Origin: Chloroflexota bacterium
GTDB lineage: Bacteria; Chloroflexota; Limnocylindria; Limnocylindrales; CSP1-4
Length of the DNA stretch: 64,000 nt
Reading direction: 5' to 3'
Assembly (NCBI GenBank): GCA_034436555.1
Contig: DAOTUU010000054.1
Location: 94,793-158,792, forward strand
Shown here: piece after piece, positions 21,940 through 44,090 of the stretch
Layout: each line of letters opens with the position of its first letter
Position numbering within the stretch: position 1 is the stretch's first letter
The notes under the pieces: model-generated
What the model was told of the DNA's origin: nothing
Databases searched by the model: none
The model's input: only the letters and a program-made list of their open reading frames with translations
Program-made: the position numbers and the translations under genes

Positions 21940-22136
21940 GAAGCTGGGCTCCCCGATGCGATGTCCGCGGTGATGGTGCGCCGCATCCTAGCGCGCTCCC
22001 GCGTGCGGGGTCAGCCCGCGACGTCCTCGACGTCCTCGACGCCGGCGGTCGCGTGGGAGCGTGGGTGGGGGCGGGGAGGGCAGCGCGGCCCGCGCCGGCG
22101 GAGGAATCGCATCGACCACCCCATAGACTGGCCGGC

Positions 22137-23618
22137 ATGCCCCACACCGACCGCGCCTCCACCCACGACCTCGCCGGTGCCATCGAGCGGCTGCTCCCGG
22201 CGCTCGAGCGATTCCTGGCGTTCGAGGGTCCCGATCCGGCGCGCGCCCGCTCCCGCTGGCGGGCACGGCTCGAGGTGCCCCTGCCGGCCGAGGGTGTGGG
22301 ACGGGACGCGGTCCTCGCGGAGCTCGCGGACGTGGTCGTCGCGAACGGGCTGCGGGTGGGCCATCCCGGCTTCAGCGGCTGGGTGACCACGGGGCCCACC
22401 GACGTGGCCGCGGCGGCCGACCTGGCACAGGCGGTGGCGGTCCCGCAGCGCTGGTGGGCCACGGCCGGCAACCTGGTGGACGACCTGGCGATGCGCTGGC
22501 TCATCGCGCTGCTGGGGTTTCCCGGCACCTTCGTGGGCACGTTCACGGCGGGTGGCTCCACGGCCAACCTGGTGGGCATGGGCGCGGCGCGCCAGCACGC
22601 CGGCGAGCGGCTCGGCTTCAGCCCGTCCCGGGACGGCAACGGCGGGTTCCGCGAGCCCCGGGTCTACTGCTCCACGGAGACGCACCACGTCGTGGGCCGC
22701 GCGCTGGGCGTGCTGGGGCTGGGTCGCACGGCGCTCCGCGAGATCCCCCTCGACGCGGGCGGCACGATCGATCTGTCGCTGCTCCAGGCGGCGCTGGACG
22801 AGGACGCCGCGGCCGGGCGCACCCAGGTGGCCATCGTGGGCTGCGCCGGGGACGTGAACACCGGGCGCATCGATCCGCTGCCGGCGCTGGCCCGCATCGC
22901 GGCGGAGCGCGGCATCTGGTTCCACGTGGACGGCGCGTACGGCGGCTGGGGTGTCCTGGACGAGCGGGTGGCCGACCGGTTCGGCGATGTGGCCACGTAT
23001 GACTCGTTCGCGATCGACCCCCACAAGTGGCTGGCGGCGCCCGTCGGCACGGGTGCCGCGATCGTGCGCGACGCGGGCATCCTGGGCCGCGCGTTCGAGA
23101 TCGAGACGGGCGCCTACGACCGGGAGCGGACCGCACCCGTCGGCACCGGCGACACCGGCTCGCCGTTCGACGAGCTGGGTCTCGGGACGCCCGACTTCGG
23201 GGTGGACTTCTCGACGCCCGCCCGGGGTCTCGCGGTGTGGGCGATCCTGCGCGAGATCGGCGCGGCCGGGGTGCGGGAGCGGATCGTGCGCCATGTCGAC
23301 TGTGCGCGGCGCGTCGCGGAGCACGCGCGGACGCACCCGGAGCTGGAGCTGCTCGCGGAGCCGGTGCTGTCGATCTGCTGCTTCCGCTATCGGCCCGCCG
23401 ATTGGACCGACGAGAAGCGACTGGATGCCCTCAACGACGCGGTCGTCCACGGCGTCCGGGCGCGCGGGCGGTGTGTCACCTCCGCGACGCGCGTGGATGG
23501 GCGCCTCGCGATCCGGCCCTGCTACGTCAATCCGCGGTCCACGCTGGACGACGCGGACGCGCTCATCGACGAGGTCCTCGAGGTGGGTCGCGCGCTCGTG
23601 GCAGGCGGCGCCCGCTGA
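22137..23618 (+). CDS. Pyridoxal-phosphate-dependent group II decarboxylase (amino-acid / L-2,4-diaminobutyrate decarboxylase-like)
   Basis: It has a PLP lysine in DPHKW and GGSTANLVGM. The start is set at MPHTDRA, and the antisense 650-aa ORF is rejected. Confidence 0.85.
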   Translation: MPHTDRASTHDLAGAIERLLPALERFLAFEGPDPARARSRWRARLEVPLPAEGVGRDAVLAELADVVVANGLRVGHPGFSGWVTTGPTDVAAAADLAQAVAVPQRWWATAGNLVDDLAMRWLIALLGFPGTFVGTFTAGGSTANLVGMGAARQHAGERLGFSPSRDGNGGFREPRVYCSTETHHVVGRALGVLGLGRTALREIPLDAGGTIDLSLLQAALDEDAAAGRTQVAIVGCAGDVNTGRIDPLPALARIAAERGIWFHVDGAYGGWGVLDERVADRFGDVATYDSFAIDPHKWLAAPVGTGAAIVRDAGILGRAFEIETGAYDRERTAPVGTGDTGSPFDELGLGTPDFGVDFSTPARGLAVWAILREIGAAGVRERIVRHVDCARRVAEHARTHPELELLAEPVLSICCFRYRPADWTDEKRLDALNDAVVHGVRARGRCVTSATRVDGRLAIRPCYVNPRSTLDDADALIDEVLEVGRALVAGGAR

Positions 23619-23709: not shown

Positions 23710-24714
23710 ATGAGCACCTCGGCCAGCCGACCCCGGATCCTCGTGTGCAAGCCCGTGCCGGTCGCCGGCCTGGAGGCCCTTCGCTCGACCTGCGAGCTGG
23801 AGGTGTGGCCGGGCCCGCAGGCGATGACCCGGCCGGAGCTGCTGGCCCGGGTCGCAGGCGTCAGCGGGATCATCGTGGTCGGTGACCGGGTCGCCGATGA
23901 CCTGCTGGATGCCGCCGGACCGTCCCTGCGCGGCATCGCCGTGTTCGGGGTCGGCCATGACAACGTGGACCTCGCCGCCTGCGCCCGACGCGGGATTCCC
24001 GTGGGCTACACGCCGGGGGCCCTGTCGACGACGACCGCGGAGCTCGCCTGGGCGCTCCTCATGGCCGCCGCCCGACGCATCCCGGAGGCCGAGCGATACG
24101 TGCGCGGCGGCCGCTGGACGAGCGCCTCGTTCGGGGACCTGCCGGGTGTGGACGTGAGCGGGGCCACGCTGGGCATCGTGGGCCTGGGCCGCATCGGCCA
24201 GGCGATGGCGCGCCTGTCCCTGGGATTCGGGATGACCGTCCTGTACAGCGGGCGGCAGCGCGTGGATGTGGCGGTGGAGCGGGCGCTGGGCGCCACGCAC
24301 GTCCCGCTCGAGGACCTGCTCGAGCGATCGGACTTCGTGAGCCTCCACGCCCCCGCCACGCCCCAGACGCATCACCTCATCGATGCCGCGGCACTCGCCC
24401 GGATGAAGCCGTCGGCGATCCTCGTGAACACCTCCCGGGGCACGCTCGTGGACCAGGAGGCGCTCCTCGCCGCGCTGGACGCAGGGCGGCTGCGGGCCGC
24501 CGCCCTGGACGTGACGGACCCGGAGCCCCTCCCGGTGGACCATCCGCTGGTGGGGCGCGATGATGTCATCGTGATCCCGCACATCGGCTCCAACACGCAC
24601 GCGACCCGCGTGAGGATGGGCCGGATGTGCGCGGAGAATCTGCTCGCCGCGTTCCGGGGAGAGCCGATGCCCCGGGCCGTCCCGGGCGCTGCTGCGACGG
24701 TGGGCGGCTCATGA
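23710..24714 (+). CDS. D-isomer-specific 2-hydroxyacid dehydrogenase (glyoxylate/hydroxypyruvate reductase-like)
   Basis: It has GIVGLGRIGQAMA, and a catalytic R/E/H triad (SRG...E...H). Confidence 0.85.
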   Translation: MSTSASRPRILVCKPVPVAGLEALRSTCELEVWPGPQAMTRPELLARVAGVSGIIVVGDRVADDLLDAAGPSLRGIAVFGVGHDNVDLAACARRGIPVGYTPGALSTTTAELAWALLMAAARRIPEAERYVRGGRWTSASFGDLPGVDVSGATLGIVGLGRIGQAMARLSLGFGMTVLYSGRQRVDVAVERALGATHVPLEDLLERSDFVSLHAPATPQTHHLIDAAALARMKPSAILVNTSRGTLVDQEALLAALDAGRLRAAALDVTDPEPLPVDHPLVGRDDVIVIPHIGSNTHATRVRMGRMCAENLLAAFRGEPMPRAVPGAAATVGGS

Positions 24715-26105
24715 CACAGGACGGGCGCTCGGCGACGCGGGTGGAGCGCGCGGTCCGCTTCCCGGCGGGCTTCATCTGGGGTTCGGGCACCTCGGCCTAC
24801 CAGGTCGAGGGGGCGGTGGCGGAGGACGGACGCACGCCGTCCATCTGGGACACGTTCTGCCGCCGACCCGGCGCCGTGCTCAACGGTGATGACGGCTCGA
24901 TCGCCGCCGACCAGTACCACCGCTACCGTGATGACGCCGCGCTGCTGCGCGAGCTGGGACACCGGATGTACCGATTCTCGATCGCCTGGCCGCGCATCCA
25001 GCCGGACGCGTCGGGTGTGCCGAACCAGCGTGGCCTGGACCACTACCGGCGGCTCGTCGACGCGCTGCTGGAGCAGGGCATCCAGCCGAACATCACGCTC
25101 TACCACTGGGACCTGCCGCAGTGGCTCCAGGATGCGGGCGGCTGGCCCGGCCGGGACGTCGCGGCGCGGTTCGCGGAGTACGCCGCGGTCGTGTTCCGGG
25201 CGCTCCATGACCGCGTGGCCTGGTGGGCGACCATCAACGAGCCGTGGTGCGTCTCGCTGCTGTCACACGCGGCGGGCGTCCACGCGCCGGGCGAGCGTGA
25301 CGCGGGACGCGCGCTGCGCGCGATCCACCACGTGCTGCTGGCCCACGGCCTGGGCATCCGCGCGATGCGCGCCATCGACGCCTCGCCGCACCTGGGCATC
25401 GTGCTCAACCCGGCGCCCGTCGTCGCGGCGCCGGGGGCCCACGGCCCGGAGCTCGAGGATGGCATCCGCGCCGTCGACGGTTACCGCAACCGGGTCTGGC
25501 TCGACACGCTGCTGGCGGGCGCCTACCCGTCGGACGTCCGGGAGCGGGCCGCACCGTTCGGGGGGTTCCCCGTGGAGGACGGGGACCTGGCGTCGATCGG
25601 CGCCCCCCTGGACTGGCTGGGCGTCAACTACTACCACGACCTCATCCTGGGCCCGGCGGATGTCGATGACGCGCTCCACCCCGGGGCGGGGCGGGTGCGC
25701 GAGGATCCGCCCGCGGGCGCGCGCACCTCGATGGGCTGGCCGATCACGCCCCATGGCCTCACCGACCTGCTGCTGCGCATCCGGACGGACTGGCCGCGGG
25801 TGCCGCCCCTGCTCGTCTCCGAGAACGGGGCGGCGTGGGACGACCCCATCGGTCCCGACGGGACGATCGACGATGAGCGGCGTCTGCGCTACCTGCGCGA
25901 CCACCTCGCGGCCACCGCCGCGGCCATCGAGCAGGGCGTGGATGTGCGGGGCTATCTCGTCTGGTCGCTGCTGGACAACTTCGAGTGGGCCTGGGGATAC
26001 CAGGAGCGGTTCGGGATCGTGCACGTCGATTACGCCACGCAGGTCCGCACGCCGCGGCGCAGCGCGTGGTGGCTGCGTGATGTCATCGCCGCCGACGGGT
26101 TCTGA
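24711..26105 (+). CDS. GH1 family beta-glucosidase
   Basis: It has TSAYQVEG, the acid/base TINEP, the nucleophile VSENG and the DNFEW signature. Its ATG overlaps the upstream stop. Confidence 0.9.
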   Translation: MTQDGRSATRVERAVRFPAGFIWGSGTSAYQVEGAVAEDGRTPSIWDTFCRRPGAVLNGDDGSIAADQYHRYRDDAALLRELGHRMYRFSIAWPRIQPDASGVPNQRGLDHYRRLVDALLEQGIQPNITLYHWDLPQWLQDAGGWPGRDVAARFAEYAAVVFRALHDRVAWWATINEPWCVSLLSHAAGVHAPGERDAGRALRAIHHVLLAHGLGIRAMRAIDASPHLGIVLNPAPVVAAPGAHGPELEDGIRAVDGYRNRVWLDTLLAGAYPSDVRERAAPFGGFPVEDGDLASIGAPLDWLGVNYYHDLILGPADVDDALHPGAGRVREDPPAGARTSMGWPITPHGLTDLLLRIRTDWPRVPPLLVSENGAAWDDPIGPDGTIDDERRLRYLRDHLAATAAAIEQGVDVRGYLVWSLLDNFEWAWGYQERFGIVHVDYATQVRTPRRSAWWLRDVIAADGF

Positions 26106-26140
26106 GCGTCCAGAGGGTTCCAGAGGCTCCGGGGGGAAGC

Positions 26141-27040
26141 ATGCGCACCATCACCACCACGCCGGTCTCCGTCCACGGCATCGATGCGCTGCGCCTGGAC
26201 GGCGCCGCGGTCTCGGTGACGGTCACCACGTCGATGGGCCCGCGCATCCTGGGCCTGGCCGGTCCAGACGGGCGCAACCTGCTGGCGGAGCTGCCCGACG
26301 CGATCATCGACCTGCCCGGACTGCCCGCGTATCGGATGCTGGGCGGGCATCGACTGTGGCACACGCCGGAGGTCCCGGCATCCACCTACCGCCCGGACGA
26401 GGGGGCGGTCACGGTCACCGAGCTGGCGGACGGGGTCGACCTGATGGGCGCCGATGACCCGGTCCAGGGGGTGCGCAAGCGGATCGGGGTGCGGCTGGCG
26501 GGCGCGGGCGTCCTCCATGTGGAGCATGAGGTGCGCAACACGTCCGCGGCACCCGTGGCGACCGCGGCGTGGGCGATCACGCAGGTGCCGCCTCGAGGTG
26601 AGGCGTGGATCCCGGTGGTGACGGGGCCGCAGCGCGGTCCCTACCTGCCCAACCGCGCCCTGGTGCTGTGGCCGTACAGTTCGGTGTCGGATCCGCGGCT
26701 GACGCTGGGCGACGACCTGCTGGTGGTGCGCGGCGTGGCCGGGTCCGATGGCCGCGTCAAGGTGGGCACGCAGCGCGGCCGGGGCTGGATCGCGTGGCGG
26801 GATGGCGGCACGCTCCTCGTCATCGAGGCGGCCGAGGAGCCGGGCGCGTACGGGGACATGGGCGCGGGCACCCAGTGCTATGCCTGCGGCGACTTCGTGG
26901 AGCTGGAGACCATCTCCCCGACCGCGTCGCTCGCGCCGGGTGAGGCAGTCGTCCACCGGCAGACGTGGCGGATCGTGGCGGTCGACCCGGCTGCGGATCG
27001 ACGCGACGTCATCCGGACGCTGGGTCTGGCCGCGGTCTGA
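26141..27040 (+). CDS. Hypothetical protein (299 aa, possibly a mutarotase-like beta-sandwich)
   Basis: It has coding GC3 bias and lies between the GH1 gene and the LacI regulator. No family was recognised. Confidence 0.55.
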   Translation: MRTITTTPVSVHGIDALRLDGAAVSVTVTTSMGPRILGLAGPDGRNLLAELPDAIIDLPGLPAYRMLGGHRLWHTPEVPASTYRPDEGAVTVTELADGVDLMGADDPVQGVRKRIGVRLAGAGVLHVEHEVRNTSAAPVATAAWAITQVPPRGEAWIPVVTGPQRGPYLPNRALVLWPYSSVSDPRLTLGDDLLVVRGVAGSDGRVKVGTQRGRGWIAWRDGGTLLVIEAAEEPGAYGDMGAGTQCYACGDFVELETISPTASLAPGEAVVHRQTWRIVAVDPAADRRDVIRTLGLAAV

Positions 27041-27077
27041 CGGCGGACGGACGGGCGGTCGGTGCCGCGCCGCGCGG

Positions 27078-28106
27078 TCAGGGTGGGCTCTCGCCGGAGC
27101 CTCGTGCGATCAGCCGGGTGGGGATGACGATGCGCTGTGGCGGGCGCGCATCTCCGGCCAGGCGCGCGAACAGCAGCTCCGCGCCGGCGCGACCGATCTC
27201 GCCCGGGTCGTAGGCCATCACGCTCACCGGGACCCGCGCCAGGTCGGCCAGCTCGAAGTCGTCGAAGCCCACCACCGCGCAGCGCGCGTCCTCCGCGGCG
27301 AGCGCCCGCAGCACCCCCAGGCAGTTGCGGTTGTTCTGGGCCAGGATCGCGGTCGCCGGATCGGCGAGCCCGAGGAGCGCACGGGTCGCGGCGATGGACG
27401 TGTCGCTGCCCGTCGGGCTGATGCGCACGAGGTCCGGATCGGCAGGCAGGCCCGCGGCCGCATGTGCCGCCTGGTAGCCCCGCAGCCGTTCCAGCGAGGG
27501 CGACACGGACAGCGCATCGCCGACGTACCCGATGCGCCGGTGGCCATGCGCGATGAGGTGTGCCGTCGCCCGCCGCGCGCCATCCTCGTTGTCCAGGACC
27601 ACGGTGTCCGCCGCCACGCCTCCCGGCGCCCGGTCGAGGAACACGACCGGCACGCCCGGTCGGACGAGACCCGCGAGGTAGCGATGGTCCTGGCCCGCGG
27701 GCACGAGCAGCAGGCCCTCCACGCCCCGCCCGACCAGCCCGGCGACGAGATCCCGCTCCCGCGCGGCATCCTCGCCCGACGAGGTGAGCATGAGCGCCCG
27801 CCCGTGGCGCAGTGCCACCTGCTCCACGGCGCCCGCCAGGCTGGCGTAGAAGGGGTTGGCGAGGTCCTCGATGATGAGCCCGACGGTGGGCAGGGACAGG
27901 CCCTTGCGCAGGTTGCGGGCGGCATCGTTGCGGCGATAGCCGAGCGTCCGGATGGCCTCCTCCACGCGCGCCGCGGTGGCGGGACGCACACCCGGCTCCG
28001 CGTTCACGACGCGCGACACGGTCTTCGCGCTCACGCCGCTCCGGCGCGCCACATCCTCGAGGGTGATCGTGGGATGGACCGTTGACATCGTTGACATGCT
28101 ACTCAA
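27078..28106 (-). CDS. LacI-family transcriptional regulator
   Basis: It has an N-terminal HTH (TLEDVARRSGVSAKTVSRVVN) and a periplasmic-binding-like effector domain. Confidence 0.85.
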   Translation of the reverse strand: MSSMSTMSTVHPTITLEDVARRSGVSAKTVSRVVNAEPGVRPATAARVEEAIRTLGYRRNDAARNLRKGLSLPTVGLIIEDLANPFYASLAGAVEQVALRHGRALMLTSSGEDAARERDLVAGLVGRGVEGLLLVPAGQDHRYLAGLVRPGVPVVFLDRAPGGVAADTVVLDNEDGARRATAHLIAHGHRRIGYVGDALSVSPSLERLRGYQAAHAAAGLPADPDLVRISPTGSDTSIAATRALLGLADPATAILAQNNRNCLGVLRALAAEDARCAVVGFDDFELADLARVPVSVMAYDPGEIGRAGAELLFARLAGDARPPQRIVIPTRLIARGSGESPP

Positions 28107-28269
28107 CCCGGACGTGGCAGTGTGATCGCTCCCGCTCGGTCACCACGTGGCGACGGGGGATGACAGCGTTGACAGGCTCGACGCACGCCCTCTACGATGG
28201 GTCCGGACGGTTACCGGGACCGTCGCCGGGGCCCCATGTGACGGGCCGCATGATCGGAGGAGTGGAATC
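28107..28269. promoter_or_regulatory. Divergent promoter/operator region between lacI and the sugar ABC operon
   Basis: The gttgaca heptamer is iterated (gttgacatcgttgacatg; gacagcgttgacagg), and GGAGG precedes the GTG start of the substrate-binding-protein gene. Confidence 0.35.
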
Positions 28270-29598
28270 GTGACCTCACGCACCACGGCCGCGCACACGG
28301 GACAGCCGGCGCGTCGCAGCCGTCGCGCGCTCGCAGCCGCGTGCCTCGCGGGCGCCACGCTGCTGGGCACCTCGCTGGGCGGCGCCACGGCGCTCGCCCA
28401 GGAGCCCTCGGGCGACATCTCGTTCTTCGGCTGGGACGTCGCGGACGTCACGTCCGGCCTGGGCAAGGGTTTCGAGGCGGCCCGCGTCGCGTTCCAGGAC
28501 GCCAATCCGGGCGTGACCGTCACGTTCGACGCGGTCCCGTTCGGCGACTTCGTGTCCGCGGCCACCACCCGCGCCCGCGCGGGCGAGCTGGGCGACGTCG
28601 TGGAGATGCTCCCCGGTCTCAACCATGCGCCCGTGTTCGACGCGCTCGCGCCGACCACGAAGGCCGACTGGGGCGCGCTCGGGGATGAGCTGACCGGCTG
28701 GGCCGGCGGCGTCATCGACCCGGCGGACCCGGACACGTTCGCGGGCGTGCCGATCGGTGGCCAGGGCGTCATCTGGTACTACAACAAGGCGCTGTTCGAG
28801 CAGGCGGGCCTGGACCCGGCCGCCCCGCCCCAGACGTGGGCGGAGTTCGCGGATGCCGCGAACAAGCTCAAGGAGGCGGGCATCACGCCGATCGCGGCGT
28901 CCGGTGTGGACTCGTTCCTCGCCTGGTGGGCCTGGTCCAGCTTCTCGCCCCAGTACTTCACCGCGGATGACGTGCTCAAGATCCGCTCCGGCGAGATCCC
29001 GCTGAACGATCCGCGCGTGCTCGCGTCGCTCCAGCCGGTCCAGGAGATGTTCGCCAACGGCTGGTGGAACGCGGACTATGCGGACAAGGCGTTCACGGAC
29101 ATGGAGTCGGCGTTCATCAACGGCCAGGTCGCGATGATCCCGGGCATCATCACCTCGATCGTGAACTGGAACGTGTGGGACGCCCAGATGGGCAAGGACG
29201 CGTACGGCGTGTTCGGCGCCCCCAAGCGGGACGACGCCACGAGCGACGGGCAGTTCTTCAACCCGACCCTCATCTACGGCGTCAACGCGGCGTCCAAGAA
29301 CCCCGACACCGCGAAGGCGTTCATCGCCTTCCTCGCGTCCAAGGAGGGGCAGGAGATCCTGCTCACCAACAGCGGCCAGTTCCCCAACCGCGCGGACATC
29401 GACCTCGCGGCGGTGGCCGGCAGCGCAGGCGCGCAGGCGATCCAGGCCGTCATCGACGCGCGCGGCGCGTCGGACGTCATCCAGAACCAGTTCTCCGCGG
29501 CGGCCCAGGGTGAGGCGTTCCAGAAGCTGACCCAGGCCATCGTGTCCGGCGACCTCCAGGGCCTCCTGGACGGCATGCAGGCGCAGCAGGGGAGCTGA
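28270..29598 (+). CDS. ABC sugar transporter substrate-binding protein (family 1) with signal peptide
   Basis: The GTG start follows GGAGG, and there is a lipoprotein-like signal peptide (AAACLAGATLLGTSLGG). Confidence 0.85.
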   Translation: MTSRTTAAHTGQPARRSRRALAAACLAGATLLGTSLGGATALAQEPSGDISFFGWDVADVTSGLGKGFEAARVAFQDANPGVTVTFDAVPFGDFVSAATTRARAGELGDVVEMLPGLNHAPVFDALAPTTKADWGALGDELTGWAGGVIDPADPDTFAGVPIGGQGVIWYYNKALFEQAGLDPAAPPQTWAEFADAANKLKEAGITPIAASGVDSFLAWWAWSSFSPQYFTADDVLKIRSGEIPLNDPRVLASLQPVQEMFANGWWNADYADKAFTDMESAFINGQVAMIPGIITSIVNWNVWDAQMGKDAYGVFGAPKRDDATSDGQFFNPTLIYGVNAASKNPDTAKAFIAFLASKEGQEILLTNSGQFPNRADIDLAAVAGSAGAQAIQAVIDARGASDVIQNQFSAAAQGEAFQKLTQAIVSGDLQGLLDGMQAQQGS

Positions 29599-29622
29599 TC
29601 GGCGGCCGCTCCGGCGGTCCCC

Positions 29623-30552
29623 ATGACCCGATCGGTCGAGCCGGCCACCCGCCAGGGTGGCCGGCTCCGTTCACGGCTCCGGCTCGGCGCAGGACGCAGG
29701 GATGCGCTGCTGTTCGTGCTGCCCCTGGCGGTGCTGCTGCTGGTGTTCGTGTATGCACCCATGGCGCGCCTGGTGGCCTACTCCTTCACGGAGTACAACG
29801 GCCTCCGCCCCGCGGAGTGGGTGGGCCTCGACAACTTCCGGTTCCTGCTCGACTGGCCGGACTTCCGGCGCGCCGTCGCCAACACGGTGGTGCTCGCGTT
29901 CGGCCTGCTCGTGTGGGTCGGGCTGCCGTTCCTGCTCGCGGTGGTCCTGTTCGGCCGGCGCGGCTCGAACCTGGTGCGGGCCATCCTGTTCCTGCCCGCG
30001 CTGCTGCCCGCGCTCATCGTGGGCCGCTCGTTCCGGCTCGTGCTGGCGGAGAACGGGCCCATCAACTCGGCGCTGCACGGCATCGGCGCGGACGCGCTCG
30101 CCCAGCCCTGGCTGTCGTCCGAGACGTGGGTGCTGCCCACGCTCATCGCGGTCATCGCCTGGGCGACCATGGGCACCGGCACGCTGCTGTACTCCGCGGG
30201 GCTGGCGTCCCTCTCGCGGGACTACGTGGAGGCGGCCGTGGTGGACGGCGCGCGCTGGCATCAGCTGGTGTGGCACATCTATCGCCCCGCGCTCACACCC
30301 GTAACCCGCTTCTGGGTGCTGCTGCTGACGATCGGCACGGTGACCTCCTTCTTCCCCTGGATCCTGGGCCTGACCCAGGGCGGCCCGGGCATCGCGTCGG
30401 TGACCATCGACTACCAGGTCTATCGCTCCGGCGTCCAGACCAGCCGGCTGGGCCTCGCATCGGCGATCGCGGTCGTGGGCGTCGTCGTCATCGCGATCCT
30501 GCTCGCGGGCCAGCTGGCGCTGCGCCGCATCCGCGGCCAGGACGACTGGTGA
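29623..30552 (+). CDS. ABC sugar transporter permease (MalF/UgpA-type)
   Basis: It has six transmembrane segments and an EAA motif region. Confidence 0.85.
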   Translation: MTRSVEPATRQGGRLRSRLRLGAGRRDALLFVLPLAVLLLVFVYAPMARLVAYSFTEYNGLRPAEWVGLDNFRFLLDWPDFRRAVANTVVLAFGLLVWVGLPFLLAVVLFGRRGSNLVRAILFLPALLPALIVGRSFRLVLAENGPINSALHGIGADALAQPWLSSETWVLPTLIAVIAWATMGTGTLLYSAGLASLSRDYVEAAVVDGARWHQLVWHIYRPALTPVTRFWVLLLTIGTVTSFFPWILGLTQGGPGIASVTIDYQVYRSGVQTSRLGLASAIAVVGVVVIAILLAGQLALRRIRGQDDW

Positions 30553-30562
30553 GCGACGTGGC

Positions 30563-31390
30563 ATGAAGGAGGGGCGCGCGCTCCGCTGGGGCTCCCGCAT
30601 CGTGATGGCCGTGGCGGTCGTCGCGGTGCTGTTCCCGCTCATCTGGGTGGTGCGGGTCGCGACCAAGACCGAGGACGGCTTCATCTCCGACCCGGCCAGC
30701 CTGGGCGGCGGCTTCACCCTGGACAACTTCGGGCGTGCCTGGGATGCGGTGGACCTGGGCGGCGCCATCCTCGATTCGCTGTCCATCACGCTGCCCGGCG
30801 CCGCGCTCGCCACGTTCGTGGGGGTGCTGGCGGGCTACGCCTTCGCGAAGCTGCCGGTCCCGGCGCGTCGCCTGCTGCTGGTGCTGGCGGTGGGCGGCCT
30901 GACCATCCCCATCGCGGCGCTGGTCATCCCCCAGTTCGACCAGGCGCTGATCCTGGGCTACCTGGACACGCGCTGGGGCGTGATCCTGGTCTACGGCAGC
31001 TTCTTCGCGAGCTGGAGCAGCCTGTTCTTCTTCAGCTACTTCAAGGACCTGCCGGGCGACCTGCTGGAGGCCGCCTCGCTGGATGGTGCGAGCGCGTCCC
31101 GCGCGTTCTGGGCGGTCGCCCTGCCGCTCGCGGGACCGGCCGTGGCGGTGGGCTTCGTGCTCAACGTGTTCCTCCAGTGGAGCGAGCTGCTGCTGGGCCT
31201 CATCCTGCTGCCCGGCGGCGATGTGACCACCGCGATGACCGCCATCGCCACGTTCTCCACCCAGTTCCGCACCGGCGGCCCGCTCACCGCGGCGGCCACG
31301 GTCATCGTGGCGCTGCCCATCTTCCTGCTGTTCATCGGCGCCCAGCGGTATCTCCGGACGGAGATCTTCGGCGGCTCGATCAAGGGCTGA
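30563..31390 (+). CDS. ABC sugar transporter permease (MalG/UgpE-type)
   Basis: It has six transmembrane segments and an EAAxLDGA motif. Confidence 0.85.
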   Translation: MKEGRALRWGSRIVMAVAVVAVLFPLIWVVRVATKTEDGFISDPASLGGGFTLDNFGRAWDAVDLGGAILDSLSITLPGAALATFVGVLAGYAFAKLPVPARRLLLVLAVGGLTIPIAALVIPQFDQALILGYLDTRWGVILVYGSFFASWSSLFFFSYFKDLPGDLLEAASLDGASASRAFWAVALPLAGPAVAVGFVLNVFLQWSELLLGLILLPGGDVTTAMTAIATFSTQFRTGGPLTAAATVIVALPIFLLFIGAQRYLRTEIFGGSIKG

Positions 31391-31402
31391 GAAAGGACCA
31401 CG

Positions 31403-33886
31403 ATGACCGCACCCACCTTCCGCAACCTGCTGGACCACCCGCTGTCGGTGCCCGACTGGGAGCTCGTCCCGGCCTCGCCCATCCGGACCGACGGTCGGTC
31501 GATGTGGCGCACGGTGGACGGTGATGCGTCGGCCGACCGGATCGTCCATGCGCGCGCGGTGCAGGGGGTGTCGGGGCCGCTGCGCCTGGAGCGGGTCGGC
31601 CTGCGCCGGGGGGTCGGCTACCACAAGTGCGCCAGCTCCCAGGAGTGGGATGCGCCGGCGCGCGTGCGCCTCCTGGCCCACCGGGACGGCGCGCTCCACG
31701 AGGTCGGGGCCTGGACGCTCGACGCGCCGCCCGCACCGGATGAGATTCGCTGGTTCGACGCGTCGGTCACCTCCGAGCTGCTGATCGCGATCGTGGAGGA
31801 TGCGTTCATCGATCGGGGCTGGCCCTCGTGGAACCTGGCGCGGACCGGGTTGGTGCTCGACGGGGCCGCCACGACCCCTTGGCGGCGCCCGGCGTACGGG
31901 CTGCTGGAACCGGTCGGATCGGCCACGGGGGAGGTGGCGCCGGGGGTCCACGCCGAGATGCGCCACGACGAGATCCGCTTCCGCACGCGCTTCCTGGAGG
32001 TGGGCTTCCGCCTGCGCAGCGCCGCCCTGTCGTTCCTGTCGCTGGACGTGGACGGGGCCGGGCGGACCGAACGCAACCTCGTGCAGCTGCCGCGGTCGAT
32101 GGACATCGTGCGCACCGGACTCTATCCGGCGGGGGTCTATCCGGTGCTGCGCGACGCCCAGGCGGGCTACCTCGCGAACGGGCCGCGGCTCACGCTTCTC
32201 GACGGTCGCGAGCCGGCGGGCTTCCTGGCGACCGAGACGCGGGGCACGGTCAGCCTGGACGGGGCGAGCGTCACGTACGACCTGGCGCTGGGGGACGCAG
32301 GCGTGCGCTACCGGCTGCGCTGGACGGTCGCCGAGGACGGTCTCCGGCTGGACCTGGAGCGTGATGTGGATGCGCCGCTGATGGCGTGGCAGAGCGCGGC
32401 GTGGCAGGTGCCGCTGAACAACCGGATGGCGATGTCCACCCTCCTGGGGCCGCTGGTGCGAGAGGGGCAGACCGGGCTCGTGGCGGCCCCCGCCACGTGG
32501 CACGTCCCGGCGTTCGGGTCGTTCGTGATCGAGGCGGACGGGGACGTGCGGCTGCGCAGCGATTCGGTGCGGCCGCTGGACACGAACACGCTCGAGATCA
32601 GGCTCGCGGAGGCGCCCCGGCCGGACGGGAGCGTCGCCATCGCCGCGGGTCGCGCGACCGGGTCGGTGCGGTTCGCGGTGCGCACGCCCCGGCTCGTCGC
32701 CACGAAGGCCGGCACGCCCGGGACCGTGGCGCGGGCGCTGGACCGACACCTCGCCACCGCGCTGGCGTTCCGCGCGGACACGGCGACGCTGTCCAACAAC
32801 GGTGCCTCGATGCACTGCGCAGGCACGCTCAACCCGATCGGAGACGTCATCGCGGCGGCGCCCGCGGGCCGGGACGGCATCGACCCCGTGGCGATCCTGG
32901 AGTCGTCGCTGTCGCGCTGGCTGTCCGGGGCGCCGGGCTACGGATCGGGGAACACCTCGCGCGGCGACTTCACGATCGAGGACGAGTACCTGATGCTGGG
33001 CGCGGACGCGCTCTACGGCCTGGGCCGGCTGCTGGGCGTCACGTCGGCGGGGTGGTTCGACGCGCACGAGGAGCGGATCGGCCGTGCCATCGGGGCGATG
33101 CGCGCCCGCGACCTGGACGGGGACGGCCTGGTGGAGAGCCCCCACCGACGGGGTGTGACCGGCGAGCACCAGTGGAGCACCACCTGGGCGGACGTCGTGT
33201 CGATGGGCTGGAAGGACGCCTGGTCGAACGCCGTGCTGTACGCGGCGCTGGGACTGCTGGCCGCGGGGTTCCGGCGCTTCGGGCGGGAGGCCGCGGCGGC
33301 CGACCTGGACCGCTGGGCGGGGCGGCTGCGCGCGGCCTATGCACCGACGTTCCTGGATGATCGCACCGGCTGGCTCATCGGGTGGCGCTCGCCGGACGGC
33401 ACGCCCCATGACTCCTGCCACGTCCAGCTCAACGGGGACGCGGTGGCGGCCGGGCTGCTGGACCCTGCGCCGGCGCGGCGTGTGATGGAGCGGGTGTGGG
33501 CCGAGCTGGAGCGGGTGGGCTACACCGACCTCGCGAACGGACTGCCGATCAACCTCCACCCGGTGGCGGAGGATGACCTGGGCGGGGTGGTGTTCGGGCT
33601 GCCCATCGGCGGGTACCTCCAGGGCGGGGCCTCGCACCACCGCACGGGCGGGTTCGTGCAGGCGCTGTACGACGTGGGCATGACCGCCGAGGGGGACCGG
33701 CTGCTGGAGGCGCTGTGCTCGTCGGTGGCGGACGACTCCTCGTTCGGGGGGATCGGCACGGGACGTGACTGGCGGCTGTGGGACGGCACGCCGAGCGGCT
33801 ACGAGGGGCTCCTGGCGGAGGGGTTCGGGTTCCTCGCGGTGGCCGTGCGGCGCTGGGGTGAGGTGGCGGAGGGCGCCGCGCGCTGA
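31403..33886 (+). CDS. Large hypothetical protein (827 aa), putative glycoside hydrolase of the sugar-utilisation operon
   Basis: It is in operon position after the permeases and has GC3 bias. No family was recognised. The 1165-aa antisense ORF is rejected. Confidence 0.6.
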   Translation: MTAPTFRNLLDHPLSVPDWELVPASPIRTDGRSMWRTVDGDASADRIVHARAVQGVSGPLRLERVGLRRGVGYHKCASSQEWDAPARVRLLAHRDGALHEVGAWTLDAPPAPDEIRWFDASVTSELLIAIVEDAFIDRGWPSWNLARTGLVLDGAATTPWRRPAYGLLEPVGSATGEVAPGVHAEMRHDEIRFRTRFLEVGFRLRSAALSFLSLDVDGAGRTERNLVQLPRSMDIVRTGLYPAGVYPVLRDAQAGYLANGPRLTLLDGREPAGFLATETRGTVSLDGASVTYDLALGDAGVRYRLRWTVAEDGLRLDLERDVDAPLMAWQSAAWQVPLNNRMAMSTLLGPLVREGQTGLVAAPATWHVPAFGSFVIEADGDVRLRSDSVRPLDTNTLEIRLAEAPRPDGSVAIAAGRATGSVRFAVRTPRLVATKAGTPGTVARALDRHLATALAFRADTATLSNNGASMHCAGTLNPIGDVIAAAPAGRDGIDPVAILESSLSRWLSGAPGYGSGNTSRGDFTIEDEYLMLGADALYGLGRLLGVTSAGWFDAHEERIGRAIGAMRARDLDGDGLVESPHRRGVTGEHQWSTTWADVVSMGWKDAWSNAVLYAALGLLAAGFRRFGREAAAADLDRWAGRLRAAYAPTFLDDRTGWLIGWRSPDGTPHDSCHVQLNGDAVAAGLLDPAPARRVMERVWAELERVGYTDLANGLPINLHPVAEDDLGGVVFGLPIGGYLQGGASHHRTGGFVQALYDVGMTAEGDRLLEALCSSVADDSSFGGIGTGRDWRLWDGTPSGYEGLLAEGFGFLAVAVRRWGEVAEGAAR

Positions 33887-33953
33887 GCCCCGGCCCCGGC
33901 CCCGGCCCCCCGGCCCCCCGGTCCCGGCCCTGATGCCCTCGCTCGCCGCGGGC

Positions 33954-34439
33954 CTACTCCCGGTCGCGCTCCCGCTCGATGTCACGGCGTGACCGCACGA
34001 CCATCACCGGCACGGTGCTGTTGCGGACGACGAAGTCGGACGTGGAGCCCATCAGCATCCGGCCCACGCCGCCGCGCCCGGTGGTCCCCATCACGATGAT
34101 GTCGGCCGACTCCGCCTCTGCTGCCGCGATGATGGTCTCGCCGGGGTCGCCCTCCCAGATGATGGACTGCGCCTCCACGCCCCACTCGCTCGCGTGCTCC
34201 AGCACCGAATCGGTGGTCTCCTGCGCCTCGGTGATCTCTTCGTCCTCCTCTCGCGAGGAGGACCGACGACTGTCGGGTTCGTCTGGGGATTCCCCGTCCT
34301 CGGTGGTCCCTTCCGGGACGACGCTCAGGACCAGGAGTCTGGCGCCGGTGTCGTGCGCCAGGTCCAGGGCCGCCTCGACCGCACCATCCGAATCGCTGGT
34401 GCCGTCGGTCGCCACAAGGACCGTCTGGAAGCGTGTCAT
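33954..34439 (-). CDS. Universal stress protein (UspA family)
   Basis: It has VLVATDGSDSDGAVEAA...ADIIVMGTTGRGG and an acidic disordered insert. The start is set at MTRFQTV. Confidence 0.8.
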   Translation of the reverse strand: MTRFQTVLVATDGTSDSDGAVEAALDLAHDTGARLLVLSVVPEGTTEDGESPDEPDSRRSSSREEDEEITEAQETTDSVLEHASEWGVEAQSIIWEGDPGETIIAAAEAESADIIVMGTTGRGGVGRMLMGSTSDFVVRNSTVPVMVVRSRRDIERERDRE

Positions 34440-34554
34440 GCCTGCCTCGTGCGTGCGGGGCGGCGATGACTGCGGTGCGCCCCGCGAGGCGCCATCGTCC
34501 CACCTCGCGGCCTTCCGCGTCGAGGGGTGCCGCAGGCCGCGTCGCGCTGCTCCG

Positions 34555-35155
34555 GGGGTCGGACGACATGTCGACCGCGCTGGACCGCGGCGCCGCCCCC
34601 CGCCGCCCGGCCGCCGCGCCGCCCCGGCGACCGGACGACATGTCGACCGCGGTGGACCGCGGGGGACCCTGGCGCCGCCCCGCGCCGCCCGGCCGCCGCG
34701 CACCCCCGGCGACCGGACGACATGTCGACCGCGGTGGGCCGCGGCGCCGCCCCGCGCCGCCCGGCCGCCGAGCTACCCCGCGGGTCGGTCGACATGTCGA
34801 CCGCGGGGGGACCGCGCTGGACCGCGGCGCCGCCCCCCGCCGCCCGGCCGCCGCGCCGCCCCCGGCGACCGGACGACATGTCGACCGCGGTGGGCCGCGG
34901 CGCCGCCCCGCGCCGCCCGGCCGCCGAGCCACCCCGCGGGTCGGTCGACATGTCGACCGCGGGGGGACCGCGCTGGACCGCTGCGCCGCCCGGCCGCCGC
35001 GCACCCCCGGCGACCGGACGACATGTCGACCGCGGTGGGCCGCGGCGCCGCCCCCCTCCGCCGGGCCGCGGTGGGCCGCGGCGCCGCCCCCCTCCGCCCG
35101 GCCGCGCTGGACCGCGGCGCCGCCCCCCGCCGCCCGGCCGCGGTCACCCGAGATC
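34555..35155. repeat. Tandem repeat array of about 600 bp, with alternating units of about 72 and 83 bp (about 4 dimers), each carrying a GTCGACATGTCGAC-type palindromic core; MIRU/VNTR-like
   Basis: The core acatgtcgaccgcgg recurs at 34566, 34638, 34720, 34792, 34876, 34948 and 35021. The perfect palindrome ggtcgacatgtcgacc alternates with the imperfect ggacgacatgtcgacc. Confidence 0.8.
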
Positions 35156-44035: not shown

Positions 44036-44090
44036 GCGCCGGGAGCGCCGGATGAGCGCCGGGAGCGCCGGGATGAGCGCCGGGATGAGC
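44018..44090. repeat. 20-bp tandem repeat (gagcgccgggagcgccggat, about 3 copies) at the lacI / ABC-ATPase junction
   Basis: It yields the iterated MSAGSAGMSAGMSTGM N-terminus and makes the ATPase start ambiguous. Confidence 0.6.

Follow-up and report, generated by a model that had tools for sequence, protein, structure and literature searches.

The locus described here raises two questions: what does the last gene of an apparent sugar-utilisation cluster encode, and with which of its neighbours does that gene belong? The cluster lies in a 64,000 bp stretch of contig DAOTUU010000054.1 from a Chloroflexota bacterium (the window; G+C content ~73%). It includes genes for a glycoside hydrolase family 1 (GH1) β-glucosidase, a 299 amino acid protein, a divergently transcribed LacI-family repressor, a family-1 solute-binding protein, two permeases and an 827 amino acid protein. 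A first-pass annotation of the sequence had named all of these genes, and all were recovered at the same positions (Table 1). We consider it probable that the 827 amino acid gene is the last gene of a LacI-controlled four-gene operon and that its product is a cytoplasmic inverting six-hairpin glycosidase of an uncharacterised family.

The 827 amino acid open reading frame and its antisense counterpart

The G+C content at codon positions 1, 2 and 3 of the 827 amino acid open reading frame (ORF) was 0.74, 0.55 and 0.94, like that of all neighbouring genes; the real genes of the window showed roughly 0.75, 0.54 and 0.92. An AAAGGA ribosome binding site was present 7 nucleotides upstream of the ORF. 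Because of this codon-position composition, the ribosome binding site and the 120 clusters of homologous proteins, the ORF is a real gene. Its product had no signal peptide and is cytoplasmic.

The same DNA contains a 1165 amino acid ORF on the opposite strand, which had already been taken for an artefact, and the analysis bore this out. Its G+C content by codon position was 0.93, 0.55 and 0.72, the mirror image of the sense genes, as its position 1 faces sense position 3, and it had no Pfam match. The stop-free length of the antisense frame in homologues rose with G+C content, from 92 amino acids at 44% to ~190–250 amino acids at 51–64%; in homologues with a G+C content of at least 72% the frame was open over the full gene length. 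The 1165 amino acid ORF is an artefact of G+C composition.

Sequence family and predicted fold

The 827 amino acid protein had no match in Pfam (E ≤ 0.01) or NCBIfam (E ≤ 1), and neither the single sequence nor a full-length profile matched any PDB sequence at E ≤ 10, in agreement with its earlier description as a member of an unrecognised family. Homologues formed 121 clusters at 90% identity; the best 120 of these 121 were almost all 790–840 amino acids long, and the named clusters among the 120 were all called "hypothetical". An exhaustive profile search returned 974 clusters at 50% identity (E ≤ 1e-3), 257 of them at E ≤ 1e-30 and ~30 of them full-length core representatives. The genomes hit belonged to Actinomycetes, Conexibacter, Chloroflexota, Rhodothermales, Bacteroidota, Opitutales, other Verrucomicrobiota, Spirochaeta and KSB1.

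An AlphaFold2 model of the full-length protein, built from a 39-sequence alignment, had a predicted local distance difference test (pLDDT) score of 89.7 and a predicted template modelling score of 0.92. Three domains were seen: an N-terminal β-sandwich, a galactose-mutarotase-like super-sandwich and the twelve-helix (α/α)6 barrel that defines the six-hairpin superfamily, with no domain after the barrel (Table 1). Structure prediction had been proposed as the check for a six-hairpin or glycoside hydrolase-like fold, and no non-catalytic fold was seen. Foldseek matched the model to GH94, GH15, GH116 and GH63 enzymes (E 1e-12 to 1e-9), and the matches to the α-glycosidase families GH100, GH15, GH63 and GH78 were as strong as those to GH94 and GH116. 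Judged from the model, the protein shares the domain plan of GH15, GH63, GH65 and GH94 enzymes. Domain 1 contains residues that were invariant in the family (W35, H49, G72-Y73, C76, S78, D83, D137 and W140), and these may have a part in the active site or help to bind the substrate.

The core family fell below every Pfam threshold. Among 39 family members, eight had sub-threshold matches to PF22422 (MGH1-like; best E 2.3e-5, cutoff 27 bits), one matched the GH116 model (E 0.074) and none reached PF17389 (cutoff 24.5 bits) at E ≤ 1. Distant relatives were 27–35% identical over the barrel only and had other N-termini, among them SGL/NHL propellers and one fusion to GH20. These relatives did reach three models: PF17389 for the six-hairpin domain of GH78 (up to 42 bits), PF22422 (up to ~42 bits) and PF04685 (GH116). 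A barrel profile that included these relatives (A2) was searched against the PDB. This revealed matches to the GH78 enzyme BT1001 (PDB 3cih; E 1.8e-7 over 176 positions), chitobiose phosphorylase (GH94; E 0.0016 over 120 residues), YgjK (GH63; E 0.0019) and a GH52 xylosidase (E 0.0026). An hhalign comparison of the barrel profile with the true GH78 protein from locus L007 gave a probability of 30%, too weak to map catalytic residues. By these sequence comparisons the family forms a branch of its own within the six-hairpin glycosidase superfamily, with GH78 as its nearest relative.

One protein of the same superfamily, P0199 (1159 amino acids), consists of a GH20 β-hexosaminidase (PF00728, E 1.9e-109) fused to a C-terminal six-hairpin domain. 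This fusion may give a clue to the class of substrate on which a sister subfamily acts.

The transporter operon and its candidate operators

The binding protein gene, the two permease genes and the 827 amino acid gene follow one another with gaps of 24, 10 and 12 nucleotides. A σ70-like promoter lies upstream of the run (Table 1) and was the only such site between 21,400 bp and 34,800 bp (shuffle mean 0.2). The short gaps, the ribosome binding site and the single promoter-like site agree with the first-pass view of the 827 amino acid gene as the end of a transporter operon that is divergent from lacI. In its gene content (LacI, SBP_bac_1, two BPD_transp_1 proteins and one upstream promoter-like site) the locus is a LacI-regulated CUT1 uptake operon.

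Two candidate LacI-type operators were identified between lacI and the transporter genes, one at the lacI start and one at the transporter promoter. Both are TGACAnCGTTGACA boxes, a motif unique to these two sites in the window, and they were also the only zero-mismatch matches to TGACANCGTTGACA in the 64 kb (28,083–28,096 bp and 28,161–28,174 bp). Related boxes were present at the equivalent position in three other loci, all with a linked LacI: TGATAACGTTGTCA in Conexibacter L006, between the binding protein gene and the 827 amino acid homologue; GAATAACGTTGTCC and ATACAACGTTGTCT in the LacI/binding protein intergenic region of L089; and GTCAACGTTAC in L010. The candidate boxes support control of the transporter/enzyme cassette by LacI, as predicted from the sequence.

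A CebR-type box, TGGGAGCGCTCCCA, was also considered and rejected: the best intergenic match had three mismatches, and there were 10 such matches in the window against a shuffle mean of 8.5. A different motif, TGGTATCGGTTCCA, was found upstream of the binding protein gene in the three closest homologue loci (L002:6783–6796, L087:5783–5796 and L088:5772–5785). There is no adjacent LacI gene in L002, L087 and L088, which suggests a different regulator there.

No ATPase gene was found in the operon encoding the transporter and the 827 amino acid protein. An ATPase gene of the ABC_tran plus TOBE_2 (MsiK-like) type is present at 44,052–45,209 bp. It belongs to a second uptake cluster (44,052–51,017 bp) that encodes this ATP-binding cassette (ABC) ATPase with TOBE, an SBP_bac_8 binding protein, a permease, two AP_endonuc_2 xylose-isomerase-like TIM-barrel proteins and a zinc alcohol dehydrogenase. 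The ATPase of this cluster could energise the ATPase-less cassette at 28,270–31,390 bp.

The conserved cassette does not include the GH1 gene

The gene neighbourhood was compared with that of 83 other loci encoding a homologue of the 827 amino acid protein, with 10 kb flanks. Orthologues of the binding protein (50–71% identical) adjoined the homologue in L002, L006/L009 and L047, and orthologues of permease 1 (52–74%) and permease 2 (43–74%) were likewise linked to homologues. LacI homologues (25–51% identical; 51% in L006/L009) were found within 10 kb of the homologue in eight other loci. In the four closest loci (L002, L087, L088 and L089; 63–70% identity) the binding protein, both permeases and the enzyme were retained, and GH1 was found in none of them. 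The cassette of L089 is flanked by a divergent LacI-family gene, as identified by Pfam, and in L003 and L006 the binding protein, permeases and enzyme are kept together divergently. The conserved unit is therefore the binding protein, permease, permease and 827 amino acid genes, with LacI at its side in some loci. Homologues of the GH1 protein, of the DUF4380 protein (the 299 amino acid product) and of the 2-hydroxyacid dehydrogenase encoded upstream of GH1 were absent within 10 kb of the homologue at all 83 loci. The first-pass annotation had proposed that absence of the 827 amino acid gene from otherwise syntenic loci would count against its role; the reverse was seen: this gene and the transporter are what the loci conserve, and it is the GH1 part that varies.

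The assignment of the GH1 gene itself is sound, its product passing the cutoffs of both PF00232 and TIGR03356. Its ATG and the stop of the dehydrogenase gene share the sequence ATGA (24,711–24,714 bp), and therefore the GH1 gene and the mutarotase-like gene that follows it belong to the upstream transcription unit. No operator box was found upstream of GH1 in a search of the 64 kb window; boxes occurred only in the lacI/binding protein intergenic region.

These data bear directly on the proposal that everything from GH1 to the 827 amino acid gene is one LacI-controlled locus for β-glucosides or β-gluco-oligosaccharides (cellobiose, laminaribiose, sophorose), in which the 827 amino acid enzyme would cleave the substrate and GH1 would finish its breakdown. 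The genes are physically adjacent in the window, a mutarotase-like gene follows GH1, and GH94 β-glucoside phosphorylases and a GH116 β-glucosidase were among the best fold matches. Against this, the α-glycosidase families matched the fold equally well, neither GH1 nor DUF4380 was encoded within 10 kb of any of the 83 other homologues compared, the closest homologues kept the transporter and not GH1, and GH1 is translationally coupled to the dehydrogenase gene. As GH1 is unlinked at the 83 other loci, coupled upstream and without an operator box, the label "LacI-controlled glucoside locus" is unsupported, and we regard a single β-glucoside locus as quite improbable. The adjacency of GH1 is probably incidental, although there may be a functional hand-over between GH1 and the cassette in this one organism. 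A β-glucoside substrate is not indicated for the 827 amino acid enzyme.

The combination of dehydrogenase, β-glucosidase and mutarotase-like genes is an unusual trio in itself, and the ATGA overlap implies translational coupling within it.

Predicted active site and mechanism

Residues W551, G575-L576, G584, D597, G602, N609, W661 and G799-Y800-E801-G802 were invariant across the core family and the distant relatives, and D570, D572, D574, E578, K604 and H669 were nearly so. D597 and the G-Y-E801-G motif were kept even in relatives of 27–35% identity. W595-A-D597 is located on a long loop between the fifth (549–567) and sixth (606–625) helices of the barrel. In the profile alignment these residues fell on W490-N-D492, the DWND motif of chitobiose phosphorylase (1v7v). 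The general acid of GH94 enzymes is a conserved Asp on the α5–α6 loop (PMC8741936); literature confirmation of the residue number Asp492 in chitobiose phosphorylase was not found and this general statement was used. Because D597 aligned with the DWND Asp of GH94, the known acid of the α5–α6 loop, it is the predicted general acid.

D597 and E801 are 204 residues apart. Acid–base pairs in this fold class are ~200–226 residues apart, and the inverting hydrolases of GH15, GH63, GH78 and GH100 have their general base at an E801-like position and spacing, whereas GH94 and GH65 phosphorylases put phosphate there. By analogy, E801 is the predicted general base.

In the proposed mechanism, the binding protein, permease, permease and enzyme genes would be transcribed from the σ70-like promoter, which overlaps a candidate LacI-type operator and faces the divergent lacI. 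The ABC system would import an oligosaccharide or glycoside, with the ATPase supplied from elsewhere; an ATPase encoded outside the operon is usual for actinobacterial CUT1 systems. The inducer would free LacI from the TGACAnCGTTGACA boxes, and the substrate would then be hydrolysed in the cytoplasm by single displacement with inversion, Asp597 acting as general acid and Glu801 activating water. The positions of the conserved residues, the fold and the operon linkage are direct results of the alignments, the model and the synteny comparison; the catalysis, stereochemistry and regulation described here are predictions drawn from them.

Several points weigh against this reading. The 827 amino acid protein of the window itself passed no family model, and phosphorylases were the top Foldseek matches. 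The catalytic roles were assigned from a single weak profile alignment (E 0.0016) and by analogy of position, and model confidence was lowest in the W591–D597 loop (pLDDT <50 for residues 592–598). The operator boxes pair at only five of seven positions and contain TTGACA, such that their recurrence could partly reflect promoter sequence. Additionally, searches with the accessions of the Opitutus terrae homologue and for new glycoside hydrolase families found no literature on the family.

The Foldseek ranking bears on an alternative activity, that of a GH94/GH65-type glycoside phosphorylase, in which Asp597 would protonate the leaving group and inorganic phosphate would attack C1. An Asp on the α5–α6 loop is indeed shared with GH94. 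The protein nevertheless differed from the GH94 enzymes (chitobiose and cellobiose phosphorylases and 1,2-β-oligoglucan phosphorylase) in showing 11–13% identity, a TM-score of ~0.35 and no GH94 Pfam match. It also has the invariant Glu801 where a hydrolytic base is expected, and an extra N-terminal β-sandwich with invariant residues of its own. A phosphorylase is thus unlikely. The earlier suggestion that the terminal gene encodes an uncharacterised glycoside hydrolase or phosphorylase stands as far as the six-hairpin, glycoside hydrolase-like fold is concerned, with a phosphorylase judged less likely than a hydrolase.

Neighbours of homologues and the possible substrate

Clustering of the ORFs of all homologue loci showed which genes recur beside the family. 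The most frequent was a GFO/IDH/MocA oxidoreductase (21 loci; directly adjacent in L043, L044 and L047), followed by an unrelated, unannotated protein of ~800 amino acids in Opitutales and Rhodothermales (16 loci), AraC regulators (10 loci), DUF455 (9 loci), Meth_synt_2-like, GxGYxYP and DHDPS-type proteins (8 loci each), SSF transporters and TonB receptors (7 loci each) and Rieske/VanA_C oxygenases, enolase-type dehydratases and GH141-like proteins (6 loci each). A canonical GH78 is encoded in the same cluster as the homologue in L007. NCBIfam typing of the dehydrogenase, dehydratase, DHDPS-type and M20 neighbours gave generic, sub-threshold matches from which a substrate is not deducible.

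Several of these neighbours are relevant to the suggestion of a divergent sister family to GH78 with 6-deoxy-L-hexosides (α-L-rhamnosides or fucosides, possibly methylated) as its substrates, the released sugar passing to non-phosphorylative oxidation. By sequence the barrel is linked best to GH78 BT1001, PF17389 is reached by the distant relatives, and the GH78 gene of L007 shares a cluster with a homologue. The commonest neighbour is a GFO/IDH/MocA sugar dehydrogenase, enolase-type sugar-acid dehydratases recur nearby together with DHDPS-type and NAD-epimerase-type enzymes, and Rieske/VanA-type oxygenase and GH141-like genes are found in Opitutaceae loci. However, the family members themselves lacked PF17389 (0/39) and, for the window protein and 31 of the 39 members, any six-hairpin Pfam match, and the hhalign probability to a real GH78 was just 30%. 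The NCBIfam matches of the neighbours (galactonate/mannonate dehydratase-like, inositol/xylose dehydrogenase-like) were all under cutoff, and the pathway genes adjoin the cassette neither in the window nor in the closest homologues. A 6-deoxy-L-hexoside substrate is doubtful; the pattern of sugar dehydrogenase, sugar-acid dehydratase and DHDPS-type enzyme, together with the GH78 affinity, would fit a deoxy- or methyl-hexoside.

The substrate is very unlikely to be a compatible solute of the glycosyl-glycerate type, as cleaved by GH63-type mannosylglycerate/glucosylglycerate hydrolases, or a small α-glycoside related to it. The PF22422 matches of the core family were all below the 27-bit cutoff, the known GH63-type solute hydrolases are single-domain proteins of ~350–450 amino acids compared with the 820 amino acid three-domain proteins described here, and no glycerate kinase was linked to the cassette.

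A broader interpretation, which we put forward tentatively and hold to be somewhat less than an even chance, joins these observations. The 827 amino acid protein and ~120 full-length relatives would form a glycoside hydrolase family outside CAZy, in a clan related to GH78, GH94 and GH63, with an N-terminal domain of its own (H49, Y73-K-C76-x-S78, D137) and a new specificity, for example for a soil or plant glycoside or a deoxy-/methyl-sugar oligosaccharide taken up intact before its cleavage in the cytoplasm. The pathway would then include a second new enzyme, the ~800 amino acid companion found in Opitutales and Rhodothermales.

The ~800 amino acid neighbour family (16 loci, e.g. L040:7538–9931) had no sequence match in Pfam or the PDB. 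The Opitutus member (L004:7477–9882, minus strand) was tried as a paralogue of the 827 amino acid family and rejected (hhalign probability 0.6%).

In L016, L023, L025, L026, L056, L066 and other Verrucomicrobiota/Rhodothermales loci, the homologue repeatedly has Rieske/VanA_C, Meth_synt_2-like and DUF455 genes as neighbours, along with AraC, SSF and GH141-like genes. Examples of the Rieske/VanA_C-type, Meth_synt_2-like and DUF455 neighbours are L023:13260–14306, L066:4240–5397 and L043:12432–13604. This gene set may process methylated sugars.

In L002 and L087, the loci of the two nearest relatives, an M20 amidohydrolase gene (TIGR01891, 258 bits; L002:12487–13758, L087:11487–12758) overlaps the stop codon of the homologue by 4 nucleotides. 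The homologue of Opitutus terrae also has an M20 gene at a distance of 1.4 kb. An N-acyl or amino-acid group on the natural substrate is a possibility.

Comparison with known systems

The 827 amino acid protein was compared with characterised six-hairpin families. In relation to GH78 (BT1001, PDB 3cih; PF17389, Bac_rhamnosid6H), it and the core family fall short of PF17389. The protein also lacks Bac_rhamnosid_N, Bac_rhamnosid, Bac_rhamnosid_C and the C-terminal β domain, its N-terminal half instead containing the mutarotase-like super-sandwich. It had no significant sequence match to the inverting α-glycosidases of GH15, GH63 and GH100 (glucoamylase, dextran dextrinase, YgjK, neutral invertase, MGH1-like). 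PF22422, which at >27 bits would indicate a GH63/MGH1-like protein, gave no match, and the combination of PF04685 and an N-terminal GH116 domain was absent. The GH95 and GH139 α-L-fucosidases are inverting enzymes with an N-terminal β domain and an (α/α)6 toroid, found in polysaccharide-degrading Bacteroidota and Verrucomicrobiota (PMC12282258). The 827 amino acid protein likewise has an N-terminal β domain and an (α/α)6 toroid; neither the C-terminal β-sheet domain plan of these families nor GH95 as closest fold match was found for it.

The known counterparts of the whole cassette we take to be the LacI-controlled CUT1 uptake cassettes of Actinomycetota of the CebR/CebEFG-BglC type. Like these, the cassette has a divergent lacI, a lipoprotein binding protein, two permeases, a cytoplasmic glycosidase gene in last place and no ATPase in the operon. 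Unlike these, its predicted glycosidase is of an unclassified family, and its candidate operators (TGACAnCGTTGACA) differ from the CebR box. We regard the 827 amino acid gene as a candidate for the first member of a glycoside hydrolase family that is unclassified and has the conventional architecture of six-hairpin enzymes.

If this prediction is true, the gene offers entry to a family of cytoplasmic glycosidases that is widespread and unannotated, with members in Actinomycetota, Chloroflexota, Rhodothermales, Bacteroidota, Verrucomicrobiota and other groups. With just LacI, an ABC importer and one enzyme, the compact cassette seen here and in four related genomes makes the substrate experimentally tractable, as recognition of the enzyme's substrate is expected of both the repressor and the binding protein. 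An annotation trap is also corrected, since the adjacency of GH1 would spread a "β-glucoside utilisation" label onto the family. Both the fold and the probable chemistry are conventional; the gain would be a new family and specificity and not a new principle, so that the result, while not surprising in principle, is worth biochemical follow-up.

Gene layout of the window

The features discussed above and their flanking genes are listed in Table 1.

Table 1. Positions of genes, candidate regulatory sites and predicted protein domains in the 64,000 bp window
Feature	Position (bp)	Strand	Evidence or remarks
Pyridoxal phosphate-dependent decarboxylase gene	22053–23618		91 nucleotides upstream of dehydrogenase gene
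D-2-hydroxyacid dehydrogenase gene	23710–24714	+	PF02826, E 1.5e-62; context, outside cassette
GH1 β-glucosidase gene	24711–26105	+	PF00232, E 2.9e-147, 491 bits; TIGR03356, 553 bits (cutoff 478.5)
299 amino acid DUF4380/aldose-epimerase-like (TTE1925-type mutarotase-like) protein	26141–27040	+	PF14315, E 2.2e-11, 43.7 bits (cutoff 29.4)
LacI-family repressor gene	27078–28106	-	PF00356, PF13377, PF00532; divergent from transporter operon
LacI-type operator candidate 1, TGACATCGTTGACA	28083–28096		Over lacI start region; imperfect 14 bp palindrome, central CG
LacI-type operator candidate 2, TGACAGCGTTGACA	28161–28174		Overlaps -35 hexamer of transporter promoter; imperfect 14 bp CG-centred palindrome
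σ70-like promoter, TTGACA-18-TACGAT	28169–28198	+	For transporter/827 amino acid gene operon
SBP_bac_1 family-1 (CUT1) solute-binding lipoprotein	28270–29598	+	PF01547, E 7.6e-33; ORF open from 28147
ABC permease 1	29623–30552	+	PF00528 (BPD_transp_1)
ABC permease 2	30563–31390	+	PF00528 (BPD_transp_1)
1165 amino acid antisense ORF	30488–33985	-	Composition artefact
827 amino acid six-hairpin glycosidase-like protein	31403–33886	+	Uncharacterised family
Domain 1, β-sandwich	31481–31870	+	Residues ~27–156; from secondary structure of model
Domain 2, galactose-mutarotase-like super-sandwich, all-β	31910–32692	+	Residues ~170–430
Domain 3, twelve-helix (α/α)6 barrel	32720–33862	+	Residues ~440–820; predicted catalytic domain
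Conserved loop D570-x-D572-x-D574-G-L-x-E578...W591...W595-x-D597	33110–33193	+	Between barrel helices 5 and 6
G799-Y800-E801-G802 motif	33797–33808	+	Just before last barrel helix
Universal stress protein (Usp) gene	33954–34703	-	PF00582, E 2e-36; convergent to 827 amino acid gene

The 299 amino acid protein had been called unknown in the first-pass annotation; it passed the PF14315 (DUF4380) cutoff and resembled the TTE1925-type mutarotase model NF052227 (E 2.5e-46, 158 bits), under the 550-bit equivalog cutoff of that model. Nothing useful was found in the literature on TTE1925 or on DUF4380. Two start codons differ from the ends of the corresponding ORFs. The true start of lacI is probably the ATG at 28,097 bp or 28,088 bp. 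The binding protein probably starts at the GTG at 28,270 bp, as judged from a GGAGGAG ribosome binding site at 28,256–28,262 bp ahead of it and an N-terminus that is signal/lipobox-like.

Downstream, the gap between the convergent 827 amino acid and Usp genes is filled by a (CCCCGG)n-like simple repeat (33,887–33,930 bp), in which no intrinsic-terminator-like site was found. Beyond it, a 763 amino acid ORF (33,979–36,270 bp, plus strand) matched CorA over residues 464–759 only and overlapped the Usp gene on the opposite strand with its 5′ part; it is an over-extension typical of GC-rich DNA.

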